In this document: positions 2,074 to 39,701 of the stretch, in pieces
Numbering within the stretch: position 1 is the first letter of the stretch
How the letters are laid out: each line of letters starts with the position of its first letter
Source of the DNA: Candidatus Hydrogenedentota bacterium
Lineage (GTDB): Bacteria > Hydrogenedentota > Hydrogenedentia > Hydrogenedentales > SLHB01
Length of the DNA stretch: 64,000 nucleotides
Reading direction: 5' to 3'
NCBI GenBank assembly: GCA_035450225.1
Contig: DAOTMJ010000007.1
Location: forward strand, 65,698-129,697
The notes under the pieces: model-generated
Databases searched by the model: none
Told to the model about the DNA's origin: nothing
What the model saw: the letters and a program-made list of their open reading frames with translations, nothing else
Translations under genes and position numbers: made by a program

Positions 2074-4023
2074 CTACGGCATGGGCGCGCGTGCCGTGGC
2101 GTCGTCAATGAAACCGTGATAGCGTCCGCGCCAGTAGGCGTCTATGAAGGCCGCGCCGCCGAGATCGCGCCGGGTGTTCTTGATGAACTGCAGCACGAGG
2201 TGTCCGTTTTCCCAGTGCTCGCCGCCGTCTTTCGATAGATACAATCCGGCCGGCGTGCCCGCGAACACCCAGTCCGTGTTTTCGGGCGTGAAGACCGTCA
2301 CCGCGCGGGGAATGCGCAGGCCGTCCGCCTTGAGTTGCCATGTCTTGCCGCCGTCCCCGCTCTTGAGCACGCCGTTGGCGTCCGGCTTGAAACGCCGTTC
2401 CCCTTCGCGAATTTCCGGCGCTTTCGCTGCTTTTTCCCACGTCTTTCCGATGTCTTTTTCCTTCGTGAAGACCGTTCGGTAGACCGCTTTTTCGCGAACC
2501 GCGTACAGCGTGTTCTGCTCGCCGGGTTCGATTTGCACGCCAACGGCCTTGCCTCCCTCTTCGGGAACGTCGAGCCGCCGCCACGAATATCCGCCCGTTG
2601 TCGAGACGCGGAATCCGTCGTCGCACGCCACATAGATCCACCGGATGCGCGGTCCCGCCGCCAATGCGCGCACCGGCGAGCCGATCCCCGCGTCCACGGG
2701 ATGCCAGCCCGCCGCCGTGGCGGCGCCGTCACGCGACTGGTACAGGTCGCCGTTCGTGTCGAAGGCGTACAGGACCACCGGATCCTCCGCCGGAACGGCC
2801 ACACCCATCACGATGCGGCTCAGCCAGCCGTCTTTGTTCAGCAGATGCCCCTTCCAGATGTATTCGTTGTCCCACACCGCGGCATACATCGGATACGGCG
2901 GTTTCAGATCGGGACGCAGGCTGTTCATCGTCGGCTCGAAGATCGTCTCCGTCGGATATGTTTGCAGCGTATACAACGCCTCCTTGAGCGCCTTGTCGCG
3001 TCCGGGCGCATCCGGCGCGAGACTGTAATAGATGTACGTAAACAGCGATTGCGCATCGTCCTTGTGATTCGACCAAATGCCTTCGAGTACGACCCGATAC
3101 GCAGCCAGCAATTCCGGATCCGTCTCGATGCGGAAAAGGTTTTCAAGGTGGCACAGGCAATGCTCGGCGTCGTCGTGATCCTTTTCCGTCCTGAAACTCG
3201 TCAGACCGCGCACATGAAATTTTTCGATGAGACGTTCGTACACGGCCTGGTATTTCGGATCGCCCGTGGCATGATGCGCGATTTTAGCGCCGCCGATGGC
3301 CATGAGAATTCGCGTGTTCAGCGTTTTGCCGTCGTGGAAACCGAGGATGGGCGTGTTGTGGACGCGGTCAATGTGCCAGATCTTGAAATCATTGTTCACC
3401 CAGTAACCGACCAGCGCGTCGATCGCCTCGCGACAACGAGCCTTCTGCGCGCCCTCCGCCGCCAAGTCGTAATAGTTGCCGAGACCGCGCGCCGACGCGC
3501 TGTAATTGTGGTGGCTTGGACTGCCCCGCCAGCGCAGATGGGCGTATTCGCCCGCGCCCTGTTGCCACGAGTCGTTCAGCCGTTCGATGCCGCGCTCTTC
3601 ATAGGATTCTCCATGGCCGATGGCATAGCCGCGCGCCTGCAATCCGCGGACGCCCGTCACGAGTTGACAGCGGTAGATGGATTCGAATAGTTCATCGGCC
3701 CGCGCCTTCGCTTTCGCGACGTCCTCCGCAGGCGCGCCCGACTTTTTGAGAAACGCATACCGGTACGACGCGCCGCCCAGGTAATTCGCCGTCCAGCACA
3801 CCGCGTGCGCGATGTTGCTGTTGCCCCGCGTGGACTGATCCACCGGCCCGCCGTCCAGCGGCACTTCAACCTGGGAAGGATACAGGCCAAGGATGTTGTG
3901 CCGCTCGACATTGTTCTTTTCGAGAATCCGCTCCTTCTCCTCCAGCGGCAATTTCCACGAATCACTAGCATGCACACAAAATGCGGCAAGACACACGCTC
4001 CAAAAAAACGGCATTGCCCGCAT
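2074..4023 (-). CDS. secreted hypothetical protein, alpha/alpha-toroid-like N-terminal half plus C-terminal BNR/Asp-box (SxDxGxTW) repeats
   Basis: N-terminal signal peptide MRAMPFFWSVCLAAFCVHA; Asp-box repeats SGDGGKTW, SKDGGEHW and DIGKTWE in the C-terminal part; N-terminal domain not recognised. Confidence 0.5.
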   Translation of the reverse strand: MRAMPFFWSVCLAAFCVHASDSWKLPLEEKERILEKNNVERHNILGLYPSQVEVPLDGGPVDQSTRGNSNIAHAVCWTANYLGGASYRYAFLKKSGAPAEDVAKAKARADELFESIYRCQLVTGVRGLQARGYAIGHGESYEERGIERLNDSWQQGAGEYAHLRWRGSPSHHNYSASARGLGNYYDLAAEGAQKARCREAIDALVGYWVNNDFKIWHIDRVHNTPILGFHDGKTLNTRILMAIGGAKIAHHATGDPKYQAVYERLIEKFHVRGLTSFRTEKDHDDAEHCLCHLENLFRIETDPELLAAYRVVLEGIWSNHKDDAQSLFTYIYYSLAPDAPGRDKALKEALYTLQTYPTETIFEPTMNSLRPDLKPPYPMYAAVWDNEYIWKGHLLNKDGWLSRIVMGVAVPAEDPVVLYAFDTNGDLYQSRDGAATAAGWHPVDAGIGSPVRALAAGPRIRWIYVACDDGFRVSTTGGYSWRRLDVPEEGGKAVGVQIEPGEQNTLYAVREKAVYRTVFTKEKDIGKTWEKAAKAPEIREGERRFKPDANGVLKSGDGGKTWQLKADGLRIPRAVTVFTPENTDWVFAGTPAGLYLSKDGGEHWENGHLVLQFIKNTRRDLGGAAFIDAYWRGRYHGFIDDATARAPMP

Positions 4024-4272
4024 AACCGCGATCCTCCCTCTCCGCGCATTGCCCGTTCCGCATGCGCGCCGTTTGCGTTCCGTCTGGACGCTCCGCTATA
4101 CTTTCCACAGTGGCCGTGAGCCGTAAAGCCGTCGTCAAGAGTAGTCGTTCTTTGTTCGCGACATCCACGCGCCGGGCATGGACGCCGCGGGGAAAGAACC
4201 CGGATATTCGACCACGGTTTTTCTTCCGAAGTTTCCCCACGCGGGAAAGCCGGTACGGCCATTCCGACACGG

Positions 4273-4349
4273 GCCGGGGTAGCTCAGTTGGTTAGAGCAC
4301 TGGATTGTGGATCCAGGGGTCCAGGGTTCAAGTCCCTGCCCCGGTACCA
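4273..4349 (+). tRNA. tRNA-His (anticodon GTG)
   Basis: Hand-folded cloverleaf: acceptor GCCGGGG/CCCCGGU, D-arm GCUC-AGUUGGUUA-GAGC, anticodon stem CUGGA/UCCAG with loop UUGUGGA (GUG), T-arm CAGGG-UUCAAGU-CCCUG, encoded CCA. There is an extra G at 4272 (possible G-1), but position 73 is A and pair 1:72 is G:U. Confidence 0.85.
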
Positions 4350-4529
4350 TCCCAATCGAGATCGAGCGCCATTCGTCGTTTCCGGTTTCCATGTTCAATA
4401 TCCGGACGCCTGTCGTCTTTTTGGGCCGGTGTTTTTTCGTCGTCCACACCGCCGTTTGCATCGTTTTCATTTGCCGGGCATAATATTTGGATGTTGGATG
4501 AATAATCGGGATTCAAGGAGACGCGAATC

Positions 4530-5300
4530 ATGAAACACAAAGTCGTTGCGATAGCGGTGGCGGTTCTGATCCTGGCGGGCGTGGCCGCCTGGCAACTGAT
4601 TCTGCCCGAGCGATTGACCGCGAGCACGCTGGAAAAGGCGGCACAGGTACAGAAACGCCTGGATCAGGAAATGGCCGGCAAGGCGCCCGCGAAGGCGCAG
4701 CCGGTGGAAACGGCCCAGGCCCAACCAACCCCAGCGCCCAAGCCGGCGGACCCCGCCAAACCGGCCGAAGGCGCGAAGGCGGCGGATCCGAATGTGTTCA
4801 AGGTAAAGTTCGAGTGTTCAAACGGCAATTTTGTGGTGGAGGTTCATCGGGACTGGGCGCCGCTGGGCGCGGAGCGGTTCGAACAACTGGTGAAGGAAGG
4901 GTTTTACAACGAGGCCCGTTTTTTCCGGGTGGTGCCGAATTTCGTGGTGCAGTTTGGTCTTGCGGCGGATCCGCAGGTCAGCGCGAAATGGCGTTCGCAA
5001 AATCTGAAGGACGATCCGGTCAAGCAGAGCAATACAGTGGGCACGATTACGTTCGCGACCGCCGGCCCCAATACGCGCACGACGCAGTTGTTCATCAATC
5101 TGGTTGACAACGCGCGCTTGGACGGCATGGGGTTCGCCCCCTTCGGGAAAGTCATCGAAGGCATGGACGTGGTCAAGGCGATTACGTCGCAATACGGCGA
5201 GATGCCGCAGCAGTACGCAATCGAAACGCAGGGCAACGCGTATCTGACGGCGCAGTTCCCGAACATGGATTATATCAAGAAGGCAACGATCGTTCCCTGA
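4530..5300 (+). CDS. peptidyl-prolyl cis-trans isomerase, cyclophilin type, membrane-anchored with Pro/Ala-rich linker
   Basis: N-terminal TM helix; cyclophilin core motifs FFRVVPNFVVQFG and TITFATAGPNTRTTQLFINL. Confidence 0.85.
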   Translation: MKHKVVAIAVAVLILAGVAAWQLILPERLTASTLEKAAQVQKRLDQEMAGKAPAKAQPVETAQAQPTPAPKPADPAKPAEGAKAADPNVFKVKFECSNGNFVVEVHRDWAPLGAERFEQLVKEGFYNEARFFRVVPNFVVQFGLAADPQVSAKWRSQNLKDDPVKQSNTVGTITFATAGPNTRTTQLFINLVDNARLDGMGFAPFGKVIEGMDVVKAITSQYGEMPQQYAIETQGNAYLTAQFPNMDYIKKATIVP

Positions 5301-5370
5301 TGGCGGCATTGGGCCCGGCGCGGGCGGATCGGCGCGCGCCATTGGCCGATGCGTTGAGGGAGGGAGAACC

Positions 5371-6351
5371 ATGGCGACTCCGGTGCGATGGGGCATCCTG
5401 GGCACGGCGCGAATCGGGCGGGCGGTGATGCGGGGCATCGGTATGGGCGTGTCGAGTTGTGTCCAGGCGGTGGCAAGCCGCAACTGGACGCGCGCTTCCG
5501 AATGGGCCAAGGAACACGGCATCCCGCGCGCGTTCGGTTCGTACGACGACTTGATCCGGTCGCGCGAGATTGACGTCCTTTACAATCCGCTGCCGAACAG
5601 CATGCATGCCGAGTGGACTCTCAAGTCGATTGAAGCGGGCATTCCGGTCCTGTGCGAGAAGCCGTTTGCGATCAATGCGCAACAGGCGCGGGAAATGGCG
5701 GCCGCCGCCAAGCGGAAAGGCGTGCTCTTGGCGGAGGCCTTCATGTACCGGTTTCATCCGATGTACGATGAAATTTTGGCGCGGATTGCCGCGGGCGCGA
5801 TTGGCGAGTTGGTCTCCATGCGAAGTTGTTTTACCTTCCGGCTGAGCGACCGCGAGACGAATATCCGCGCGTCGGCATCGTTGGCCGGCGGCGCCCTGAT
5901 GGACGTCGGCTGCTACTGCGTGAACCTCGCGCGGCTTGTCGCGGGTTGCGAACCCGTCCATGCGCAGGCGGTAAGCCGCCGCACCAGTGTGGACGACACG
6001 CTCATGGGCCAGCTTGTGTTTCCCGGGGGCATTTTGGCCCAATTCGAGTGCAGCATCGAAAACTATGCCCGGAGCCATGCCGATATTGTCGGGACGGAAG
6101 GCATGATCCATATACCCTCGCCATGGTTTCCGGGCGAGGACAAGGCCTGTTTTTTCATTCGGCGCGGCGGACACGAGGAAGTCGTGGAAACGCCCGGCGC
6201 CAACTGTTACCACCTCGAAGTCGAAGACTTCGTTCGCAGTTACAAGACGCATCAGCCGCCGCGCTGGACTCCGGAGGATGCCGTGGCCAACATGGCGGTG
6301 ATCGACGCGCTCTACCGATCGGCCGAGGAAGGAAAGACCGTGGCCGTTTGA
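5371..6351 (+). CDS. Gfo/Idh/MocA family NAD(P)-dependent oxidoreductase
   Basis: N-terminal Rossmann motif RWGILGTARIGR; conserved EKP motif (VLCEKPFA); 326 aa. Confidence 0.85.
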   Translation: MATPVRWGILGTARIGRAVMRGIGMGVSSCVQAVASRNWTRASEWAKEHGIPRAFGSYDDLIRSREIDVLYNPLPNSMHAEWTLKSIEAGIPVLCEKPFAINAQQAREMAAAAKRKGVLLAEAFMYRFHPMYDEILARIAAGAIGELVSMRSCFTFRLSDRETNIRASASLAGGALMDVGCYCVNLARLVAGCEPVHAQAVSRRTSVDDTLMGQLVFPGGILAQFECSIENYARSHADIVGTEGMIHIPSPWFPGEDKACFFIRRGGHEEVVETPGANCYHLEVEDFVRSYKTHQPPRWTPEDAVANMAVIDALYRSAEEGKTVAV

Positions 6352-29532: not shown

Positions 29533-30843
29533 CTACACTTCCCAGCCGGGGCGGCGCGCATAGGATAGCATGCGGTTGGCCTGTTCGTCCTTGGGGAAAC
29601 GTTCCGCCACGGGGTCCCAAATCATCGTGCGTTTGAGCTGGGTGGCGATGCCGGCAAGCAGCACAAGACTCATCGAGCGATGCGCCGTTTCGGCGTCGCA
29701 GGTGGTCCGTTTGCGGGTCCGGATGCATTCGAGGAAATTGCCCGCATGGCTTTTGCTGGGATAGGCACGGCGGTCGGACGGCTTGAGCGCCGCGCCGAGG
29801 ATGGAAGCGGGTTTCGATGTGATGTTCTCGCGATCCACGGCGATGTAGCCTTCCGTGCCGACGTAACAGGCGCCGCCGACGCCGCCGACGCCTTCGGACG
29901 GATGACGGCACGCATGCACCACGACGCCGTTGCCGTAGCGCAGGACAGCGTGATCGTTTTCGTACGCGATTTCGACGGGCCCGGGGCAGTCTTCCTCAAG
30001 CACCCATTGAACCACGTCGTAATGGTGCGGTCCCCAATTGGGGTCGCCGTACGCAAAGAGGCCGCAGTGGGCGTTGCCGCCCGTGTAAGGCTGCCAGGGT
30101 CCCGGCCCGACGTAAATGTCCCAGTCGAGATCTTCAGGCACAGGGATGCCCGGATCGTACACGTTTTGCAGGTTCGCGCTGAAACCGCCGCCCGGGCTGT
30201 ACGCATAGATTTCTTTCAATTGTCCGATGTAACCGTTCCGGACGAGTTCGTAGGCGCGCCTGAATTTGCCGTCGTATTCGGATCGCTGCTGCGTGCCGGC
30301 CTGGTACACACGGGCGTAACGTTTCATCGTTTTCGCGAGGAGGCGTCCTTCCTCGATGGTCATGGCGACGGGTTTTTCACTGTACACGTCCTTGCCGTGT
30401 TTGGCCGTCATGATGGCCATCGGCGCATGCCAGTGAAACGGCAGCGCCATCAGCACGGCGTCCAGGTCGTCGCGGGCGAGGAGGTCGCGGAAATCGCGGT
30501 ACGCTTCGCACGACGTATGCGAGCCGCTCCCCGCCAGTTGGGCGTAATGCTGGTTCACGCGATCCTTGGCGCTTTCCCGCTTGGGTTTCCACACGTCGCA
30601 TACGCCGATCACCTGAACGTCCGGGCGGCCAAGATAGCCGCCGGCCACATAGGTCCACGATCCGCCGAACAGGTGGCCGGACCCCTGGCCGCCAAGACCG
30701 ATGAATCCCATTGCGATGCGATCGCCGGGCGCCACGGAACCGCCCCGGCCCAACACCCGCGCCGGAACGATCATGGGGCCTGTGGTTGCCGCCAGCGCGC
30801 CCGCCAGGAAACCGCGCCGCGAAAGCACCTTGCTTTTCATCAT
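29533..30843 (-). CDS. Gfo/Idh/MocA family oxidoreductase with twin-arginine (Tat) signal peptide
   Basis: N-terminal SRRGFLAGALAAT Tat motif; Rossmann GFIGLGGQG; EKP motif; start ATG overlaps the stop of the upstream gene (ATGA). Confidence 0.85.
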   Translation of the reverse strand: MMKSKVLSRRGFLAGALAATTGPMIVPARVLGRGGSVAPGDRIAMGFIGLGGQGSGHLFGGSWTYVAGGYLGRPDVQVIGVCDVWKPKRESAKDRVNQHYAQLAGSGSHTSCEAYRDFRDLLARDDLDAVLMALPFHWHAPMAIMTAKHGKDVYSEKPVAMTIEEGRLLAKTMKRYARVYQAGTQQRSEYDGKFRRAYELVRNGYIGQLKEIYAYSPGGGFSANLQNVYDPGIPVPEDLDWDIYVGPGPWQPYTGGNAHCGLFAYGDPNWGPHHYDVVQWVLEEDCPGPVEIAYENDHAVLRYGNGVVVHACRHPSEGVGGVGGACYVGTEGYIAVDRENITSKPASILGAALKPSDRRAYPSKSHAGNFLECIRTRKRTTCDAETAHRSMSLVLLAGIATQLKRTMIWDPVAERFPKDEQANRMLSYARRPGWEV

Positions 30844-33800
30844 TTGCCTCTCCTCTGCAGGAAGACGTGAACGCCTTTTTTATTCGAGGTCACCACATCC
30901 AGTAGGCCGTCGCCGTCGAAATCGCACACTTCAAACTGGGTGCCCACGCCGGAATCGTTGTCAATTTCGTGCAGACGGTACTCGAATTTCCCCGGTTCCG
31001 TCCGTTTCAGTTCCAGCCAGCACAGGACGGCCGGTTCGTGGCAACCGGGATCGTGGCCGCAATGGGCGTAATACCGTTTGCCGGTAACCAAGTCCTGCAA
31101 CCCGTCGTTGTTGATGTCGGCTAGAATCAGGGCGTGCGTTTGCGAAATGCCTTTGTGAATTTCGTGCTGCTCGAACGTGGCCGCGCTGTTTTCGTTGCGC
31201 TGTTCGAACCACCATATACCGTATTCATGGGCGGAACTCGTGATCACATCGTTGTCGCCGTCGCCGTCCACATCGTAAACGACCATGTTGGCGCACGCCG
31301 GACCCAATCGGGCCGGATGAAATCCCCAATCGGGCCGGGTCCGATCCGGCGGCCCTTCCCACCAGCCTTCGGTCGAGAGGATGTCCATGCGCCCGTCGCC
31401 GTTGAGATCGCCCATGCCGAGGCCGTGGCCGAATTGGGCGAACGATCCCATCTGATGCGACATCGGAAACGCCAGCCAGGGCGCCCGTTTGTCCTGTCCG
31501 GTGCGGAACCATGTGACCCGGTTGTTCATCGCGAACACGGGGACGGGTTTTCCGTCGTCGAGAAGATCGCCGAAGATGGGCGTTTCGCCGCACGCCGACG
31601 TGGCCAGCAGATATTCCGGCCAATGCCCCGCGCCTTCGCCCGGATTGCGGTACCAGTAGGCGGGACCGCCCGGCATGCCGATAACGATTGAATCGGTCCA
31701 GCCGTCTTCGTCCACATCCGCCGCAAAGTTGGCGAAGCACCGGCTGTAACCGGTGTTCGGATCGTATGTTTGCGGCGGCCGGATCTCGCGAGGCGTCCAG
31801 TCCGGCGACTTGTACCACAGGTCGCCGGCCAGAATGTCGTTGAATCCGTCTCGATCAATATCCGCCACAGCCACGCCCTCGGAACGGAACAGGGGATCCA
31901 CGACGATATGCTTGAAACGCACCTTGTCCCCCGGAACGGCGACGGCCGTCAACGCCCGCATAACATCCATCAACGGCGTCAGCGCGGCCGGGGAAACACC
32001 GGCTTTCCGCGCGCGGACCAGCACGCCGGACGCGGATCCGCGGACCTCGTCGGCATGGGATGTCAGCAACGACTTGGCGATTTGGCCCCACGCCGAAACC
32101 GCTTCCGCGACGACATCGTCCTGGGGCAGGTAGCGCTCGACGGTTTTCAGCGCCGTAAGGGTGGGACATCCTCCCAACGCGCCGAGGAAAAGCCGTTTTT
32201 CCTCCGGCCGTTCAGCAACCGCCAGCGCGCGAGTCAAGGCGTCTTCGCGTATCGGTTGCTCAATGTCCTTGCCGCTGGATCCCAGCCGGGCGATGCCGCG
32301 GAAGATCAAAACGCGGTGGGTCAGGTCGGTTGTCTTGTCCAAAAGCCCCAGGAGAACCGGCATCGCTTCAGGATTTTCCGTTTCGGACAAGGCGCGGATG
32401 GCGGCGTCTTTTGGCGCGGCATCCCCGCCGGTCGCGGCGTTTTCGAGCGCTTTCAAGAGCGATCCATGGGGCACTTTCCCGCAAACATCCAATAGCGCGC
32501 AACGAAACGCCGGATTTTCTTTTTTCAAGCCATTCAGCAGGGCGTCGGCAAACTCGGCCGGCACGCCAAGACGTATCCCCAGCGCCGTCAAGGTGCGTTT
32601 TATGGCCGCCCGTTCCCGGTCATTTTCGGCTCGCTCCATGGCTTGGCAGATTAGTTCCGCATCTTGGGCCGCACCGGTTTCGGCCAGCGCTTGGGCGGCT
32701 GCGGTGCGCACGGCGGCCTCCGGGCTTTGGACGAGCCTCCGCAGGGCCGGCGCCACGGCTTCATCCCGCCGCTGCCCCATGGCCTTTGCCAACACGCTGG
32801 TTTCGGCCGCGCCGGCGCCTTCTATTGCCGCAAGAAGCGCCGCCGACACGTCCGGCGCGTTGAGTTGCGCTAAGGCTTGCTGGGCGGCGCTTCGATTCGG
32901 CTCGCCGGCATGCGCCGCCGCCTTGACCAGCGCGGGAACCGCTGAACCGTCGCCGACGATTGCCAGCGCTTGGATGGCCGCCGCCGCAATCGCCGGATCG
33001 GCATGGGCGGCCATGGGCGCCAGCGCCGGCGCGGCGGCCTTGTCGCCACGTTGCGCCAAGGCTTCGATCAGTCCGGGCAGAACCGCTTCCGGCACACGAT
33101 CCAGCAGGGCGGCGAAGGCTTGGGTGTCTTTTGGGTTTCCATGTTCGCGGACCGCGGGCAAGGCGGCGTCCCACAACGCCGGCACATTGCCCAACAGCGC
33201 CTTTTCAACGAGTTTATCCGCCTCGCGCGGGCTGGTGCGTATCAGGCCGAGATACGCCGCTGTGCCGGCATATCCGTGGCCGCATTGTTTGAAGACCTCT
33301 TTGTAGATGGCGCGCGCGGATCGGGGATGCTTGTCGCCCAGGCGCTCCGCGCAGCTCATCAGGGCGTCCAAGGCGGCCATTTTGAAGCGTCCTTCACCGT
33401 TCCGTGCGGCCTTTTTCAGCGCCGACACGGCCTTGTGACCGCCGATGCGTCCCAGCGCCAGCGCCGCGGACATCGCAATGACGGGATCGTCGTCCTTCAG
33501 GGAACGCGCCAGCGCCGGAACGTCCCCCGCGTTGCGAAACGTGCCGAGCGATTCGATTATCCCCGCCTTGACGACGCCCGAAGATACGCCCAGCGCCTTG
33601 CGGAGGGCATCCCGGGCTTCCGGATAGGGCATGGCGGCAAGGGCCAGCCGCGCCGGATGGGACAATTTTTCGTCCGTCAGGCAGGCGGCCAGCAGCGGAA
33701 CGCTTTTAGCCGTGCCCACGCGTTTCAGCTCTTCGCAGGCCTTTTCCTTGCCCGCGATGGCGCCGGGCTGGGCAAGGACGGCAAGGAAAAACTGTTCCTC

Positions 33801-34424
33801 GTCCATTCCGTTTACCCAGACGGGCGTCCCGCCGATTTTTTCACCGCATTGGGCGGTCAGCGTTGCGGCGATCAGGTTGATTGTCACGGCCGCATCGGCA
33901 TTCTCGATTTCAATTGCCGACACCGGGATGTCCGGGCGCGGATTCCGGGCTGAAAAGCGCCAGAACGCGATGGGCTGCTTGCGATCGCCGTGCATGAGGG
34001 TGTCGGCGTGGGCCTGCGCGGCAAACGCCAGGGGCCCCGGTTTCCACCAGTCGCTGATCGTGAGGCCGCCGCGGATGGGAATCGCGGCCCGTTCCCCATC
34101 CGTGTAAATCAGCGTGTAGGAACCGATCCGATCCCCCGCGTTTTCCGTGAAATGCAGGAAATGAATGCCCGCGCAGACCGTCGGGGCAATTTCGACGCGC
34201 TTTTTCTCCCCCGCGCGCACGGACACGCGCGCATCCGCCGTCAGGAAGGAAATGCCGTCTATTTCTCTCGCGCCCGGCTCGAATTGACAGAACATACCGC
34301 GCAGTCCCGGAACAGAAATCGAACCCAGATCCACCGGGGTCGAATCCAGTCCCGCGGCCCACGATGCAAACATCCCGACGGCTATGCCGGCCACAACAAC
34401 GCGTTGCCACCCGATTGATTTCAT
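30840..34424 (-). CDS. large secreted multidomain protein: unknown N-terminal domain, central HEAT/PBS-lyase-like repeats, C-terminal FG-GAP/VCBS (ASPIC-UnbV-like) beta-propeller repeats
   Basis: Signal peptide at ATG 34424 (MKSIGWQRVVVAGIAVGMFASWAAG); Ala/Leu-rich HEAT-like repeats in the middle; DxDGDG-type repeats (DIDRDGFNDI, DVDEDGWTD, DLNGDGRMD, DVDGDGDNDV, DINNDGLQD, DFDGDGLLD) in the last ~450 aa. Confidence 0.7.
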   Translation of the reverse strand: MKSIGWQRVVVAGIAVGMFASWAAGLDSTPVDLGSISVPGLRGMFCQFEPGAREIDGISFLTADARVSVRAGEKKRVEIAPTVCAGIHFLHFTENAGDRIGSYTLIYTDGERAAIPIRGGLTISDWWKPGPLAFAAQAHADTLMHGDRKQPIAFWRFSARNPRPDIPVSAIEIENADAAVTINLIAATLTAQCGEKIGGTPVWVNGMDEEQFFLAVLAQPGAIAGKEKACEELKRVGTAKSVPLLAACLTDEKLSHPARLALAAMPYPEARDALRKALGVSSGVVKAGIIESLGTFRNAGDVPALARSLKDDDPVIAMSAALALGRIGGHKAVSALKKAARNGEGRFKMAALDALMSCAERLGDKHPRSARAIYKEVFKQCGHGYAGTAAYLGLIRTSPREADKLVEKALLGNVPALWDAALPAVREHGNPKDTQAFAALLDRVPEAVLPGLIEALAQRGDKAAAPALAPMAAHADPAIAAAAIQALAIVGDGSAVPALVKAAAHAGEPNRSAAQQALAQLNAPDVSAALLAAIEGAGAAETSVLAKAMGQRRDEAVAPALRRLVQSPEAAVRTAAAQALAETGAAQDAELICQAMERAENDRERAAIKRTLTALGIRLGVPAEFADALLNGLKKENPAFRCALLDVCGKVPHGSLLKALENAATGGDAAPKDAAIRALSETENPEAMPVLLGLLDKTTDLTHRVLIFRGIARLGSSGKDIEQPIREDALTRALAVAERPEEKRLFLGALGGCPTLTALKTVERYLPQDDVVAEAVSAWGQIAKSLLTSHADEVRGSASGVLVRARKAGVSPAALTPLMDVMRALTAVAVPGDKVRFKHIVVDPLFRSEGVAVADIDRDGFNDILAGDLWYKSPDWTPREIRPPQTYDPNTGYSRCFANFAADVDEDGWTDSIVIGMPGGPAYWYRNPGEGAGHWPEYLLATSACGETPIFGDLLDDGKPVPVFAMNNRVTWFRTGQDKRAPWLAFPMSHQMGSFAQFGHGLGMGDLNGDGRMDILSTEGWWEGPPDRTRPDWGFHPARLGPACANMVVYDVDGDGDNDVITSSAHEYGIWWFEQRNENSAATFEQHEIHKGISQTHALILADINNDGLQDLVTGKRYYAHCGHDPGCHEPAVLCWLELKRTEPGKFEYRLHEIDNDSGVGTQFEVCDFDGDGLLDVVTSNKKGVHVFLQRRGK

Positions 34425-34568
34425 GAACACTTGTTTTCTCCCGATGCCTTCCTGCAAGGGACATAATCCGTCCGTGCAACGGCAAGGCATCATCATAGGC
34501 ACAGGGACGCGGACACGCAAAATTTCCTCCACGCGAAGTCAGCCGGGTTTACAACCCCCACCTCGCGC

Positions 34569-36506: not shown

Positions 36507-36789
36507 GCGGCCATTATACTCCCAAAAGGCGAAACGGCCTTTTGTTTGCATGCAACCGCCTGTTGACAGGAATAACCCGGTATGGTAGTCTGGATTTGTG
36601 GAAAATAGAACGAAAGGGAGCGGACGGCCCTTGGGGGTCTGGCCGTTCCTTTCTGTGTTGAATAGAGTGATGTATGGGCGATGCGGCCGGACATCACCAT
36701 CCAGAGCCGTTCAAGATGTGCCCAAGAGGCGTGGATCACCTCATCCAAGACAGGGGTAGTTATGTGCCTTTTGCATACCTTGCCCCTTT

Positions 36790-37977
36790 TTGGTTGATGT
36801 TGGCGAGCGTTATTGCAAAAAAAACCAGAAAGTTTGCGATCAAGTGAAAAAAGTAGGCAAACGCAAACCCACTGAAGCGCGGGAAAACGGTCTTCAGTAC
36901 ACAGCCAAGGCTCCTACTTCCCAAAAAACATTTCGTTTCATAGATCTATTTTGCGGGATAGGCGGCTTCCGAATTGCTTTTGAGAAAGCCGGGTGCAAGT
37001 GTTTGTGGTCCTGTGACTGGGACAAACATGCACAAATCACATATGAGGCTAATTTCGGTGAAAAACCCGCAGGGGATATTCATTCCATTGCCGTTGCCGA
37101 TATTCCAAACCATGACATACTATGTGCCGGTTTTCCTTGCCAGCCTTTTAGCATTGCCGGAGTGTCCAAAAAAAACAGTTTGGGGCGAAGGCATGGTTTT
37201 GAAGATGAATATCAAGGAAATTTGTTTTTCTCCATAGCGGAGATTATTGATTATCACAAACCGGCGGCGTTTGTTTTGGAAAATGTAAAAAACCTCAAGA
37301 GTCACGATGGAGGGCGTACTTTTGATGTTATCCATCGTACACTTACCCAGGCGCTTGGTTATACTGTTTACTACAAGGTCATTGATGCCAAGAACGTGGT
37401 TCCACAACATCGTGAACGAGTCTTTTTGGTGGGTTTTCGTCCTTGGTGTTGGTTCGATTTTCCTGAATTTCCCGAAAATGGTCCGGTGCTTGCCTCAATC
37501 CTTGAAACAGAAGTTTCTTCCAATTACACGCTAACGGAACACCTTTGGCAATATCTGCAGGATTATGCGAAGAAGCATCAGGCGGCCGGAAATGGTTTTG
37601 GGTATGGACTGTGCTCGGGCCAAGATGTTGCCAGAACGCTGAGCGCACGTTATTATAAGGATGGGTCGGAAATTCTAATCTCCCAAGGCCAAGACAAGGT
37701 TCCACGGCGATTGACGCCCCGCGAGTGCGCAAGGCTTATGGGATTTCCCGATCATTTCAAAATTCCTGTTTCCGACACGCAGGCATACAAACAATTTGGA
37801 AATTCCGTGGTTGTCCCTGTCGTTGAAAAAATTGCGGCCAATGTTGTAAACGCGCTGACGAGAGGCAGCGACTATCAGCCAGAGATGGTGCTCTGCGCCG
37901 ACAAAAAAACTGCATACGCATTCGGTGGCATTCGCAACAGGAATGGAAAAAACAGGAAAAAGGAAAACTCAAAATGA
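36790..37977 (+). CDS. dcm: DNA (cytosine-5)-methyltransferase (Dcm-type)
   Basis: Motif [12 protein letters not shown], motif [10 protein letters not shown], motif [10 protein letters not shown], motif [15 protein letters not shown], motif [10 protein letters not shown]. Start uncertain: TTG 36790 or in-frame GTG 36844. Confidence 0.9.
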
Positions 37978-38957
37978 GGGGGCCGTCCATTGATCGTTTT
38001 CTCAGAAGCAACGAGTGGGATATGCCCTTTTTCAAGCGACTTGCACATAATGACACCGGAAGAGCGCGCGGGCACCAAGGGGGGATTGTTATACCAAAGG
38101 AGTTAAGAAAGTATTTTCCAAGGCTGGATGAGTCCGGCGTGTCCATGTTTTCCCCCACATGCGATCGCCATTTGCAGGCAGAGTTATATGTTGGAACAAC
38201 ATATGTCGGCATTGTGCGAACAAGATACCAGATCCAGACATGGGGTGGGACTCGCCAGCCGGAATCGCGTATTACCGAAAATCTTGCCGAACTAAGAGGC
38301 CATGCAAATGCTGGCGATTTGCTCATTTTCCAAAGACGGGCCGATTCTACGGATCGTTTTCGTCTGTTGCTTCTTAAACAGGGGACAAACGCATACGATC
38401 TTGTCGGCAATCTGGTGGCATCGCGACGTTGGGGGCCTCTTTATTCCCAAGATCTTCCTGTTTCACAAGAGGATTTACAAGTTGCCCATTCAAACATCGA
38501 GACGCTTTCGCGTTCCGAGTTTACATTGCTTGCCCCAAGAATCCAACGCGTTGAAGCCCGTCACACGCGCATAGCCCGGAGCGCCGCATTTAGGGACCGG
38601 ATCAGGATGGAATACGGGTATAAATGCTGTGTGACAGGGATCAATCTTATGACCCCAACGCAGATGCACGAGGTTGAATCGGCGCATGTGGTTCCAATAA
38701 GCGAAGGCGGCACCGATGACATACGCAACGGTATTGCCCTGATTCAAACCTTGCATTGGGCTTTTGACCGGGGTTTGTTTGGGATTTCTTCCCGTCGCCA
38801 AGTCTACATTCCCAACCGGATTCTGGAAATGCCGGAAAACGACTTTCTCCGGCAGTTTCATGGCAAATCCATTTCCGAGGCAACGACACAGGATTTTCAC
38901 GTTCACAAAGATGCTTTGGAGTGGCACCTCGAACATCGTGTCAGGCAGTGGGAATAG
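37974..38957 (+). CDS. putative Type II restriction endonuclease: EcoRII-N-like effector DNA-binding domain fused to HNH nuclease
   Basis: ATG overlaps dcm stop (ATGA). N-terminus [30 protein letters not shown] and ...[11 protein letters not shown]...GDLLIFQ resemble the EcoRII N-terminal domain (recalled from memory); C-terminus CCVTGI...[37 protein letters not shown] is an HNH motif. Confidence 0.7.
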
Positions 38958-39051
38958 GATTTCGTGGAAATAGAAACAACCGGCATTCCCGTGCCGCTTG
39001 CAAGAATCGTTATTCGTGGATATTTGGGCAAAAGAAAAACGTTCGGATATC

Positions 39052-39453
39052 ATGTCCCGCATTCGCTCCCGCGGAAACAAAAGAACCGAACTTCGTTTGA
39101 TTGAAATACTTCGACAGTACAAAATTACAGGATGGAAAAGAAGCCAAAATGTTTTCGGGAAACCGGATTTTGTTTTTTGGAAAGAACGGGTAGCGGTATT
39201 TGTGGACGGATGCTTCTGGCATCGCTGCCCGAAGTGCTATCGTGCCCCTTCAACAAACCAGGCCTTTTGGAATTCGAAAATGGCACGCAATGTGGCAAGG
39301 GATCGTGAGGTTTTGAACGTTCTCAAAAGGGGAAGATGGGTTGTGCTGCGAATCTGGGAACACCAGTTAGTTCATGCGGGACGTGTCGCATGGCGCATAA
39401 ATCATGCGTTGCATAAGGGTTTCAAAAGACTGGAGACAGGGAAAAAGACCTGA
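39052..39453 (+). CDS. vsr: very short patch repair endonuclease (T/G mismatch-specific)
   Basis: ATG 39052 (MSRIRSRGNKRTELRLIE); Vsr signature FVDGCFWHRCPKCY; classic genomic partner of dcm. Confidence 0.85.
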   Translation: MSRIRSRGNKRTELRLIEILRQYKITGWKRSQNVFGKPDFVFWKERVAVFVDGCFWHRCPKCYRAPSTNQAFWNSKMARNVARDREVLNVLKRGRWVVLRIWEHQLVHAGRVAWRINHALHKGFKRLETGKKT

Positions 39454-39701
39454 ACTCGTCCGATTAGTCTTAGTAGCCGGAAAGGAATAAAGGTCGCAGC
39501 TTATGGTATGGGCAAATTACAATCGCGATTGAAACATGCAATGAATTCGCGTTCTGCATGAAGCGAGTTGCTACCTTTATTTATTTCCACCGCCTTAGTG
39601 CTTTGATCGTTTCGTTTTTTGCGTCGTTTCCATTATGATTCAAGGCACGGCCGTGCCTGCGGCGAGGCAGGCATGTCATCGTGAAAGCGTTTTGAAACGA
39701 C

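Follow-up and report, generated by a model that had tools for sequence, protein, structure and literature searches.

A predicted CCWGG-targeting Type II restriction endonuclease family that joins an EcoRII-N-like reader to a TagI-like HNH nuclease

What might be the function of a protein that is encoded between homologs of dcm and vsr, and whose EcoRII-N-like N-terminal region is paired with an HNH motif rather than with the PD-(D/E)XK core of EcoRII itself? CCWGG, the Dcm sequence, is among the best-studied restriction targets, and EcoRII, PspGI, MvaI and UbaLAI represent four ways of cutting it. The gene that raises this question (R) lies in a 64,000-nucleotide stretch of DNA from a Candidatus Hydrogenedentota bacterium (the window, whose first letter is position 1), and an earlier note, made from the letters of this stretch, had proposed that its product is an unusual and possibly undescribed chimera. 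The reading favored here, its mechanism included, is that R probably encodes the endonuclease in a Type II restriction-modification cassette of three genes (M-R-V) targeting CCWGG. The features on which the argument draws are as follows:

36700..39600, no strand: low-GC island with the M-R-V cassette (GC ~46-51% vs ~60% in the flanks, composition profile)
36790..37977, + strand: M gene, C5-cytosine DNA methyltransferase, Dcm-like, putatively CCWGG-specific (coordinates of the longest open reading frame from TTG; true start uncertain)
37974..38957, + strand: R gene, 327 aa, ATG start; putative two-module restriction endonuclease (EcoRII-N-like reader and TagI-like HNH nuclease)
38016..38447, + strand: N-terminal DNA-binding pseudobarrel of R (EcoRII-N/B3-like), aa ~15-158
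38448..38540, + strand: connecting segment of R, aa ~159-189, with one long helix at aa 165-179 (DSSP on the AlphaFold2 model)
38541..38954, + strand: C-terminal HNH nuclease module of R (TagI/VcaM4I/ScoMcrA type), aa ~190-327
38676..38768, + strand: beta-beta-alpha-Me catalytic core of R, aa 235-265 (H238, D248, N252, H261, D265)
38998..39453, + strand: V gene, very-short-patch repair endonuclease (Vsr)

The open reading frame of R had been delimited exactly in the earlier note, and all of the peptide stretches quoted there are found in the translation, i.e., 29 residues at aa 21-49, ten residues at aa 94-103, GDLLIFQ at aa 114-120, CCVTG at aa 218-222, and 12 residues at aa 238-249 that are followed by N252 and H261. 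The AlphaFold2 single-chain model (pLDDT 92.8, pTM 0.86) consists of two separate modules with a helical segment between them, each of the modules matching different PDB families in the fold search. Both of the domains named in the note are present, their sizes being somewhat different from those it gave: by fold, the N-terminal domain spans aa ~15-158 rather than some 170 residues, and the HNH module comprises ~140 aa rather than just the last 90. The connecting segment is variable in the family alignment and has no Pfam match over aa ~159-189, and neither EcoRII-C nor PD-(D/E)XK matches to R were found in Pfam, NCBIfam or PADLOC. A PD-(D/E)XK core hidden within aa 136-215 was considered as well and rejected, as this region holds the helical connector and shows no profile or fold match. 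The claimed pairing of an EcoRII-N-like domain with an HNH nuclease in place of a PD-(D/E)XK one is supported. The pTM value suggests that the packing of reader and nuclease in the predicted structure may be fixed, which would also fit cutting within or right at the site.

The N-terminal region was indeed recognized as EcoRII-N-like, even though the PF09217 (EcoRII-N) match at aa 18-126 is marginal (26.3 bits vs a cut-off of 25, E 7e-6); precomputed PF09217 matches are also present in many R homologs, and the best Foldseek matches of the R model are to EcoRII (1na6/3hqf, E 3e-7), the structural match to 1na6 involving the N-domain only. In the predicted structure, the domain has a seven-stranded pseudobarrel fold with an N-arm (residues N26, H34 and Q35) and a C-arm (residues Y85, R94, E97 and R99). 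EcoRII-N contacts the bases of CCWGG through N28, H36, Q37, Y85, R94, E96 and R98, and no longer binds when the inner C of either strand is 5mC (PMC2770665). Sequence identity between the R and EcoRII N-domains is only ~19%, and all seven of these base contacts are identical in R according to the profile alignment (N26, H34, Q35, Y85, R94, E97 and R99). Among 185 family members, the contact residues are retained in 174 (N26), 154 (H34), 174 (Q35), 170 (Y85), 182 (R94), 185 (E97) and 184 (R99) sequences, with H34 replaced by Asn in 27 and Y85 by Phe/Trp in 14 of the 185, so that CCWGG specificity may vary within the family. The DNA-contact arms of the reader are the most conserved surface of the R family in the family alignment.

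A reading in which the CCWGG contacts are lost arose from a single-sequence phmmer comparison against the PDB, which set EcoRII R98 on Q86 and E96 on R84 of R, and was rejected because a family profile built from 50 sequences, together with the invariance pattern, showed this alignment of the C-arm to be an artefact. The correspondence between RQPESRIT of R and RNEKRIT of EcoRII, which the earlier note had put forward, turned out to be right: phmmer had misregistered it and the family profile restored it. The E-values of the family profile against the PDB (~1e-4) are close to that of a T-box match that is evidently spurious, and sequence evidence by itself is hence weak, the case resting on the fold and on residue conservation. 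With these taken together, it is strongly supported that the N-terminal pseudobarrel of R is closely related to EcoRII-N in structure and sequence, with every CCWGG-reading residue kept. No SRA, EVE or SBD match was found for the reader in Pfam, NCBIfam or the fold searches.

As to the C-terminal half, the HNH motif noticed earlier is borne out by PF13391 (HNH_2) at aa 218-271, with 43 bits against a cut-off of 21, and the fold of the whole ~140-aa module in the model is TagI-like (Foldseek match to TagI, E 3e-5). TagI, VcaM4I and ScoMcrA/SBD-HNH are the closest relatives of this half both by sequence and by fold. The catalytic residues of TagI (H229, D241, N245, H254 and D258; PMC6212794) align in the profile alignment to H238, D248, N252, H261 and D265 of R, of which H238, N252 and D265 are each conserved in 184, H261 in all 185, and D248 in 170 of the 185 members. 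There is strong support for the C-terminal half being a TagI-type HNH module that is predicted to be catalytically intact. The best NCBIfam match of R is a phosphorothioate-dependent enzyme model with a score below its cut-off, and NF045808 matches R through the C-terminal HNH part only. In TagI, the HNH domains dimerize and cut away from the site bound by the reader (PMC6212794); for SBD-HNH enzymes, the distance of the cut from the site is N4-N7, and removal of the reader turns them into non-specific nickases (PMC7461809); and the TagI/VcaM4I/ScoMcrA/SBD-HNH modules have weak 2-4 nt preferences, their targeting depending on the reader (PMC7461809, PMC6212794).

The flanking of R by dcm and vsr homologs, also as claimed before, is well founded on both sides. 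M scores 300.6 bits with PF00145, 315 bits with TIGR00675 and 388 bits with PRK10458 (Dcm), and shares 52% identity with E. coli K-12 Dcm at aa 47-339, variable target-recognition region included, which makes it strongly supported, by sequence comparison, as a Dcm orthologue-like enzyme. V scores 102.1 bits with TIGR00632 (cut-off 97.85) and 67 bits with PF03852, and is 35% identical to E. coli Vsr. The TGA stop of M overlaps the ATG start of R (ATGA), and R is translationally coupled to M. The best PADLOC model for M, DrmMII (515 bits), was rejected as decisive proof of CCWGG specificity because the specificities of DrmMII enzymes differ (CCWGG in class 2, MTCGAK in Serratia class 1). Identity to Dcm is likewise not sufficient to separate CCWGG from CCNGG, given that M.PcaI, which shares 38% identity with Dcm, has CCNGG specificity (PMC8989522). 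The island as a whole has a GC content of 47.8%, and its low GC relative to the flanks suggests horizontal acquisition; no flanking long repeats, tRNA or integrase were found in its surroundings, a search for signs of mobile elements nearby (repeats, tRNA, Rfam) gave nothing convincing, and promoter/terminator counts were within shuffle expectation.

Some help with the target comes from the host DNA. Of all 512 pentamer classes, CCWGG is depleted most strongly in the 64-kb window outside the island (86 observed vs 139.5 expected, z -6.5), and it is again in first place in the pooled homolog loci, 411 kb in total (O/E 0.66, z -14.5), where CCSGG has an O/E of 0.98. As CCWGG is depleted while CCSGG is not, W is favored for the specificity of the methyltransferase. 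In the control loci with HNH-only relatives (n = 9 of at least 6 kb), CCWGG is mildly depleted too (O/E 0.83, rank 9), and with a control set this small and itself mildly depleted, the comparison is supportive only. The depletion fits restriction and/or methylation pressure.

Is the R protein, then, an isolated chimera? It is not: there are 398 R matches among 90%-identity clusters, HNH-fused representatives make up 79 of the 150 best 50%-identity clusters, and 50 two-domain loci (47 from a 68-locus species-genome scan plus L001, L003 and L005) span at least eight major lineages and many phyla. R is a member of a conserved family widespread in environmental bacteria, and the Pfam domain pair is already in databases, where its members are named only “HNH endonuclease” or “restriction endonuclease”. 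The part of the claim that held the protein to be possibly undescribed has fared better, as a search of the literature found no paper on, or biochemical study of, the EcoRII-N plus HNH architecture, which is not covered in PMC7461809, PMC8989522, PMC12065111, PMC6765204, PMC12707154 or PMC4081073. A Dcm-like methyltransferase is encoded at 46 of the 50 two-domain loci, at a median gap of 144 nt and in at least six gene orders; of the four loci without one, three end within ~0.5 kb of R and the other (L017) has only 0.46 kb downstream. It is strongly supported that R and the Dcm-like methyltransferase have been inherited together across phyla. Vsr is linked at 34 of the 50 loci, and at 15 loci M and R occur without a Vsr match. 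The EcoRII-N-like and HNH modules each also occur without the other; the same HNH half is found in many proteins that have neither the N-domain nor a neighboring methyltransferase, the HNH-only relatives being without a Dcm-like one. Cultured carriers of the family include Oleiharenicola lentus (WP_129046657.1), Thauera aminoaromatica MZ1T with plasmid pTha01 (WP_012592908.1), Pseudomonas sp. MMS21 TM103 and Aquisalinus luteolus, and on plasmid pTha01 a dcm-vsr-HNH cassette adjoins partition and replication genes.

On sequence and model evidence, R is most likely a CCWGG-specific Type II restriction enzyme that is blocked by Dcm-type methylation. The specificity of the family members is inferred, and so are their sensitivity to methylation, their oligomeric state and the position of the cut. 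M would put a methyl group on the inner cytosine of host DNA (C5mCWGG), which would prevent binding by the R reader, as shown for EcoRII-N, and would thus spare the host DNA, whereas on unmethylated foreign DNA the reader would dock on CCWGG and tether the HNH module. The latter probably acts as a dimer via the HNH halves, as in TagI, and would make a double-strand break close to CCWGG, probably a few nucleotides outside it, in a Type IIS-like manner comparable to BfiI and the SBD-HNH enzymes; cleavage at a distance is proposed by analogy. A single reader monomer takes up a site completely, so a dimer would come with two readers that are separate, and a second site may therefore stimulate cleavage; two-site (Type IIE/IIF-like) behavior is plausible if the HNH modules of R dimerize as those of TagI do. 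Vsr, for its part, would correct the T:G mismatches that arise from deamination of the methylated cytosines (5-methylcytosine).

The main point of contention is the role of the EcoRII-N-like domain, which had been called an “effector” when the protein was tentatively placed in Type IIE/IIP. Under such a scheme, the HNH dimer itself would recognize and cut within CCWGG, the N-terminal domain being only an allosteric effector/tether bound to a second copy of the site. In both of the characterized enzymes combining an EcoRII-N-like domain with CCWGG specificity, EcoRII and UbaLAI, this domain indeed serves as an accessory effector, the site being read by the catalytic domain itself (PMC2770665; PMC5766183). 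Sequence-specific Type IIP HNH enzymes are also known (e.g., Hpy99I and PacI; PMC4081073), and the pTM of the R model suggests a defined inter-domain geometry. The HNH kin (TagI, VcaM4I, ScoMcrA/SBD-HNH), however, have weak preferences, depend on their readers for targeting and cut at a distance, the same HNH half is common in proteins lacking the N-domain and a neighboring methyltransferase, and it is the contact arms of the reader that the family has conserved most. The label is not established, and a true Type IIE (or IIP) enzyme seems unlikely, though it is the best placed of the alternatives. Because the HNH half is homologous to weakly specific modules cutting at a distance, the EcoRII-N domain is, by analogy, more probably the sole specificity determinant than a mere effector, as is the reader of BfiI, which would make R Type IIS-like.

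A primary role other than defense could also be imagined, with R being either a site-specific nickase that works with Vsr and Dcm in repair/recombination or the toxic component of a selfish addiction cassette that serves mainly to maintain itself: the cassette sits in a low-GC island and, in Thauera, on a plasmid beside partition and replication genes, nickase activity is known from truncated relatives of this HNH module, and Vsr is frequently linked. This is, nevertheless, very unlikely, since R is linked more tightly to the methyltransferase than to Vsr and is found with M at loci that have no Vsr match, and since the CCWGG depletion fits restriction and/or methylation pressure. Addiction behavior is known from ordinary Type II systems and is, as such, not an alternative mechanism. 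The least probable of all, with hardly any chance of being right, is a modification-dependent (Type IV or IIM) endonuclease attacking C5mCWGG DNA, for even though all of the characterized close HNH relatives (TagI, VcaM4I, ScoMcrA, EcoKMcrA and the SBD-HNH enzymes) depend on modification and the best, sub-threshold NCBIfam match is to a phosphorothioate-dependent enzyme, coupling to and co-inheritance with a Dcm-like methyltransferase would be suicidal for a cutter of methylated DNA, the reader is of the EcoRII-N type, whose binding 5mC abolishes, and not SRA, EVE or SBD, and Q35 and Y85, the residues behind 5mC exclusion, are conserved.

How would a CCWGG-reading Type II enzyme of this kind relate to the known systems? 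EcoRII (Type IIE, CCWGG; PDB 1na6, 3hqf) has a PD-(D/E)XK EcoRII-C catalytic domain that is missing in R, whose nuclease is of the HNH type, and the N-domain of EcoRII acts as an autoinhibitory effector, its C-domain reading the site by base flipping, whereas the N-domain of R is probably its only sequence reader. Having no EcoRII-C (with its K328-D329-R330 recognition helix), matching 1na6 in the N-domain only and being HNH in the C-terminal half, R is not a member of the EcoRII family. In UbaLAI (monomeric Type IIE, CC/WGG; PDB 5o63), the partner is an MvaI-like PD-(D/E)XK catalytic domain that is itself CCWGG-specific, whereas in R it is an HNH module without known intrinsic site specificity. 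In BfiI, too, a B3-like reader is attached to a nuclease, in this case a non-specific one (PMC4081073); in BfiI/BmrI (Type IIS; PDB 2c1l, 3zi5), however, the nuclease is a metal-independent PLD one, as opposed to the predicted metal-dependent HNH of R, and the BfiI reader is C-terminal and recognizes ACTGGG, whereas that of R is N-terminal and presumably recognizes CCWGG. MnlI/HpyAV belong to Type IIS, their catalytic site is of the HNH type and their cuts fall 5-7 nt outside an asymmetric site (PMC4081073); their recognition domains are unrelated to the R reader. The reader-HNH enzymes of Type IV/IIM (TagI, VcaM4I, ScoMcrA and EcoWI) have SRA, EVE or SBD readers that require modified DNA and no cognate methyltransferase; R has no modification-sensing reader and is accompanied by a Dcm-like methyltransferase at nearly all of the loci, and by analogy its reader of unmodified CCWGG would be blocked by methylation, so that the logic would be inverted from Type IV to Type II.

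One may go further and suggest, if only tentatively and at somewhat less than even chances, that R would be the first Type II enzyme to be built on the reader-HNH cleavage module of modification-dependent (Type IV/IIM) enzymes, with a methylation-blocked B3-like reader and a cut at a short fixed distance outside unmethylated CCWGG, and that the same reader subfamily may serve GHKL and ABC-type ATPase defense proteins as a portable “unmethylated CCWGG sensor”. Since both of the domains, the target and the restriction-modification logic are already known, the gain is incremental rather than conceptual. HNH-based cutting of CCWGG would, nonetheless, be a fifth solution to the problem and extend a textbook comparison, and a CCWGG reader that cuts outside its site and is sensitive to Dcm-type methylation would add a new specificity to the available reagents. 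The family is also easy to test, there being cultured carriers and, in E. coli dcm+/dcm- strains, a ready genetic assay. It would link two classes that are usually treated apart, joining the reader-linker-HNH layout of Type IV/IIM enzymes to a methylation-blocked reader and a cognate methyltransferase, and might be a clean natural example of a module swap that inverts the logic of a restriction enzyme. If the Type IIS-like reading of CCWGG is true, it would provide a new cleavage specificity for a classic site, as well as direct evidence for the exchange of one nuclease cassette between Type II and Type IV enzymes simply through a swap of readers.

The 327-aa candidate restriction endonuclease gene, R, was found at exactly the coordinates claimed for it in the earlier note, its translation holding every peptide quoted there, and it lies between genes for a Dcm-like methyltransferase (M) and a Vsr endonuclease (V):

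36790..37977, + strand: M, 395-aa ORF, C5-cytosine methyltransferase (PF00145, 300.6 bits; TIGR00675, 315 bits)
37974..38957, + strand: R, ATG start, 327 aa
38998..39453: V, Vsr endonuclease gene downstream of R (TIGR00632, 102.1 bits, above the cut-off)

Pfam places EcoRII-N (PF09217) on aa 18-126 of R at 26.3 bits, barely above the curated cut-off of 25; HNH_2 (PF13391) scores 43 bits over aa 218-271. As the EcoRII-N score is marginal, independent evidence was sought. AlphaFold2, given an alignment of 50 family sequences, modelled R with high confidence (mean pLDDT 92.8, pTM 0.86). In the model, an N-domain of seven strands in a barrel-like arrangement is followed by a helical connector and a C-terminal helical/beta-beta-alpha module, the fold-based limits being about aa 15-158 for the N-domain and about aa 190-327 for the HNH module. 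No PD-(D/E)XK domain was detectable in R by profile (Pfam, NCBIfam, PADLOC) or by fold. The pairing of an EcoRII-N-like domain with an HNH nuclease proposed in the earlier note thus stands, as an N-terminal EcoRII-N match is present and the PD-(D/E)XK core that would have spoken against it went undetected.

In the EcoRII-N/DNA crystal structure, base-specific contacts are made by Asn28, His36 and Gln37 of the N-arm and by Tyr85, Arg94, Glu96 and Arg98 of the C-arm, the central T:A pair being read by Gln37, Asn28, Arg98 and Tyr85, and a 5-methyl group on the inner cytosine of either strand abolishes binding because it leads to clashes in which Gln37 and Tyr85 take part (PMC2770665). The family profile aligns these seven residues one-to-one with N26, H34, Q35, Y85, R94, E97 and R99 of R, in line with the correspondence drawn in the earlier note; a single-sequence phmmer alignment had placed the C-arm out of register and was superseded by the profile. 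Across 185 full-length family members (24-56% identity to R), these are the best-conserved positions of the N-domain (N26 in 174, H34 in 154, Q35 in 174, Y85 in 170, R94 in 182, E97 in 185 and R99 in 184), with H34 replaced by Asn in 27 of the 185 and Y85 by Phe or Trp in 14. Because the contact residues are kept, and given the methylation data for EcoRII-N, we infer that the N-domain of R binds CCWGG only where Dcm-type methylation is absent.

As for the C-terminal half, aa 190-276 of R align in the family profile with residues 183-270 of TagI, whose catalytic set comprises the nucleophile-activating His229, Asp241, Asn245 and the metal ligands His254 and Asp258 (PMC6212794). Their counterparts in R are H238, D248, N252, H261 and D265, retained in 184, 170, 184, 185 and 184 of the 185 members, respectively, which marks the nuclease as TagI-type and, judged by its residues, catalytically intact. 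The NCBIfam model for phosphorothioate-dependent restriction enzymes matches aa 196-320 solely via its own C-terminal HNH part and, at 73 bits, falls short of its cut-off (180), and PADLOC returned a generic HNH model only. Many plasmid proteins annotated as “HNH endonuclease” share only aa ~135-325 of R (tblastn against plasmids), so the HNH half is a module that spreads independently of the N-domain.

The stop codon of M, TGA, overlaps the ATG of R (…AAAATGAGG…), and such an overlap of adjacent genes is a typical mark of translational coupling. The M-R-V stretch has a GC content of 46-51% vs about 60% in both flanks, and searches at the borders of this island turned up neither tRNA genes nor long flanking repeats nor Rfam families. 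Over aa 47-339, M shares 52% identity with E. coli K-12 Dcm, including long identical runs within the variable target-recognition region, and V is 35% identical to E. coli Vsr.

Relatives of R number 398 at E <= 1e-3 among 90%-identity clusters; the best 120 of them are all full-length and 48-57% identical to R, bar one 270-aa, 100%-identical fragment, and carry no database name more specific than “HNH endonuclease” or “putative restriction endonuclease”. A genome scan (one genome per species) gave 68 loci, 47 of which, together with L001, L003 and L005, made up the 50 two-domain loci assessed, spanning Verrucomicrobiota, Planctomycetota, Bacteroidota, Ignavibacteria, Terriglobia, Lentisphaerae and alpha-, beta- and gamma-proteobacteria. 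In 46 of the 50, a methyltransferase sharing 52-76% identity with M is encoded near R (median gap 144 nt), and 34 have Vsr, whereas no such Dcm-like methyltransferase was found at the loci matching the HNH half only (L061-L073). Gene order varies (M>R> at 13 loci, M>R>V> at 12, M>V>R> at 12, R>V<M< at 5, plus others; dcm-vsr-HNH on Thauera aminoaromatica plasmid pTha01), and as M and R are kept together nonetheless, their linkage is maintained by selection, not just by one operon's shared ancestry. At three of the four loci without a methyltransferase the contig ends within about 0.5 kb of R. L017 (Bacteroidetes JAFDZY010000345.1) has none in 1.6 kb upstream and extends only 0.46 kb downstream; L014 (Flavobacteriales JADZAC010000014.1), with 2.2 kb of upstream sequence, carries a 32-aa Dcm-like remnant (1985-2080) upstream of an apparently intact R. 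The gaps at L017 and L014 could come from misassembly, from the use of another methyltransferase or from decay of the system. L003 and L010 (Phycisphaerales JADYZN010000014.1) have an extra 98-aa ORF without a Pfam match between R and Vsr (7094-7390 in L003). Elsewhere in the window, a 1230-aa ORF unrelated to R (30840-34532, − strand) combines a HEAT-repeat-like middle with C-terminal FG-GAP/VCBS-like repeats, a type typical of Verrucomicrobiota/Planctomycetota, which matches the lineages from which the closest R homologs come.

Under a third-order Markov model, CCWGG is the most depleted of the 512 reverse-complement pentamer classes in the window outside the island (1-36700, 39600-64000), with 86 sites observed vs 139.5 expected (z -6.5), the O/E of CCSGG and GGWCC being 0.88 and 0.86. 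The pooled homolog loci (411 kb, 47 loci) likewise rank CCWGG first (O/E 0.66, z -14.5; CCSGG O/E 0.98), with milder depletion in the small set of HNH-only control loci (O/E 0.83, rank 9). Supportive rather than decisive, the depletion fits restriction avoidance, loss through 5mC deamination, or both, specifically at CCWGG, and its pattern favours W over N as the central base. The second most depleted pentamer in the window outside the island is ATCGA (O/E 0.70) and the most over-represented CTCGA (O/E 1.40), skews that might point to another methylation or restriction system in the genome.

The two modules with their residue conservation, and the co-inheritance of a Dcm-like partner with R, are directly seen or strongly supported. 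In the mechanism proposed, M would make C5mCWGG on host DNA, sparing it since the reader of R could not bind methylated sites, and on unmethylated DNA the reader would dock on CCWGG and bring in the HNH module to make a break. The HNH domains of TagI dimerise to form one DNA-binding site, and cleavage lies away from the reader-bound base, leaving 3' overhangs of 1 nt, with site preference limited to RYN/RY (PMC6212794); SBD-HNH enzymes cut N4-N7 from the site, and SprMcrA without its reader is a non-specific nickase (PMC7461809); BfiI, a B3-like reader joined to a non-specific dimerising nuclease, is a Type IIS enzyme binding two sites (PMC4081073). Because these relatives of the HNH module and BfiI behave in this way, we favour R as a probable Type IIS-like enzyme with the EcoRII-N domain as its specificity determinant, and second-site stimulation of cleavage is possible, as one reader monomer covers the whole site and a dimer would have two readers. 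That the HNH dimer itself reads CCWGG while the N-domain serves solely as an effector, the arrangement in EcoRII and UbaLAI, seems unlikely, even if the high pTM may point to a fixed placement of the two domains. With a coupled methyltransferase and a reader of the EcoRII-N kind, R is very unlikely to depend on modified DNA.

With 160 representatives when 1.84 billion proteins are clustered at 50%, the reader subfamily is small. Of its best 150 representatives, 79 carry an HNH fusion, 55 measure less than 200 aa (fragments or stand-alone copies), eight are 200-340 aa long, lack a detectable HNH half and are possibly truncated, and eight are longer proteins without HNH. The last include P0149 (728 aa), in which the reader (PF09217, 27.6 bits, aa 17-105) is joined to ABC-type ATPase domains (AAA_21/AAA_15) of an OLD/AbiEii-like ATPase, another effector partner for the subfamily, and P0220 (896 aa), a fusion to a GHKL ATPase. 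A 1127-aa GHKL fusion (HATPase_c_3 and HATPase_c) with intact reader contact motifs is encoded in Duganella guangzhouensis FT80W (L053, 4980-8363), where tblastn detected neither a Dcm-like M nor a Vsr gene up to 5 kb away; these GHKL fusions may represent a different, ATPase-based defence protein sensing unmethylated CCWGG. In Duganella sp. S19_KUP01_CR8 (L055, 1636-5462), the gene order is:

1636-2697: Dcm-like M
2818-3195: Vsr
3410..4936: MvaI/BcnI-family protein, 508 aa (PF15515, 87 bits)
4893..5462: stand-alone EcoRII-N-like ORF of the same subfamily as the N-domain of R (PF09217, 26.9 bits)

The last two, a domain pair that UbaLAI holds in one protein and that is here encoded as two genes, possibly form a two-subunit CCWGG enzyme.

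On the features tested, R belongs to both the EcoRII-N/B3-like superfamily and the HNH_2/TagI-like module family, and the cassette has the genomic make-up of a Type II R-M system. R is not a member of the EcoRII family, because it lacks, as tests showed, the EcoRII-C domain that defines that family, nor of the Type IV reader-HNH families, from which its different reader and cognate methyltransferase set it apart; the closest functional likeness is BfiI, with its B3-like reader and non-specific nuclease, and UbaLAI is a precedent for a CCWGG reader moved between catalytic domains. No description of an EcoRII-N-HNH enzyme was found in the literature searched, and neither PADLOC nor NCBIfam has a dedicated model for it; as the EcoRII-N/HNH_2 Pfam pair is visible in precomputed annotations, the architecture is “seen but not described”. 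What is new in R is the combination of two well-known modules on a classic site, following ordinary R-M logic.
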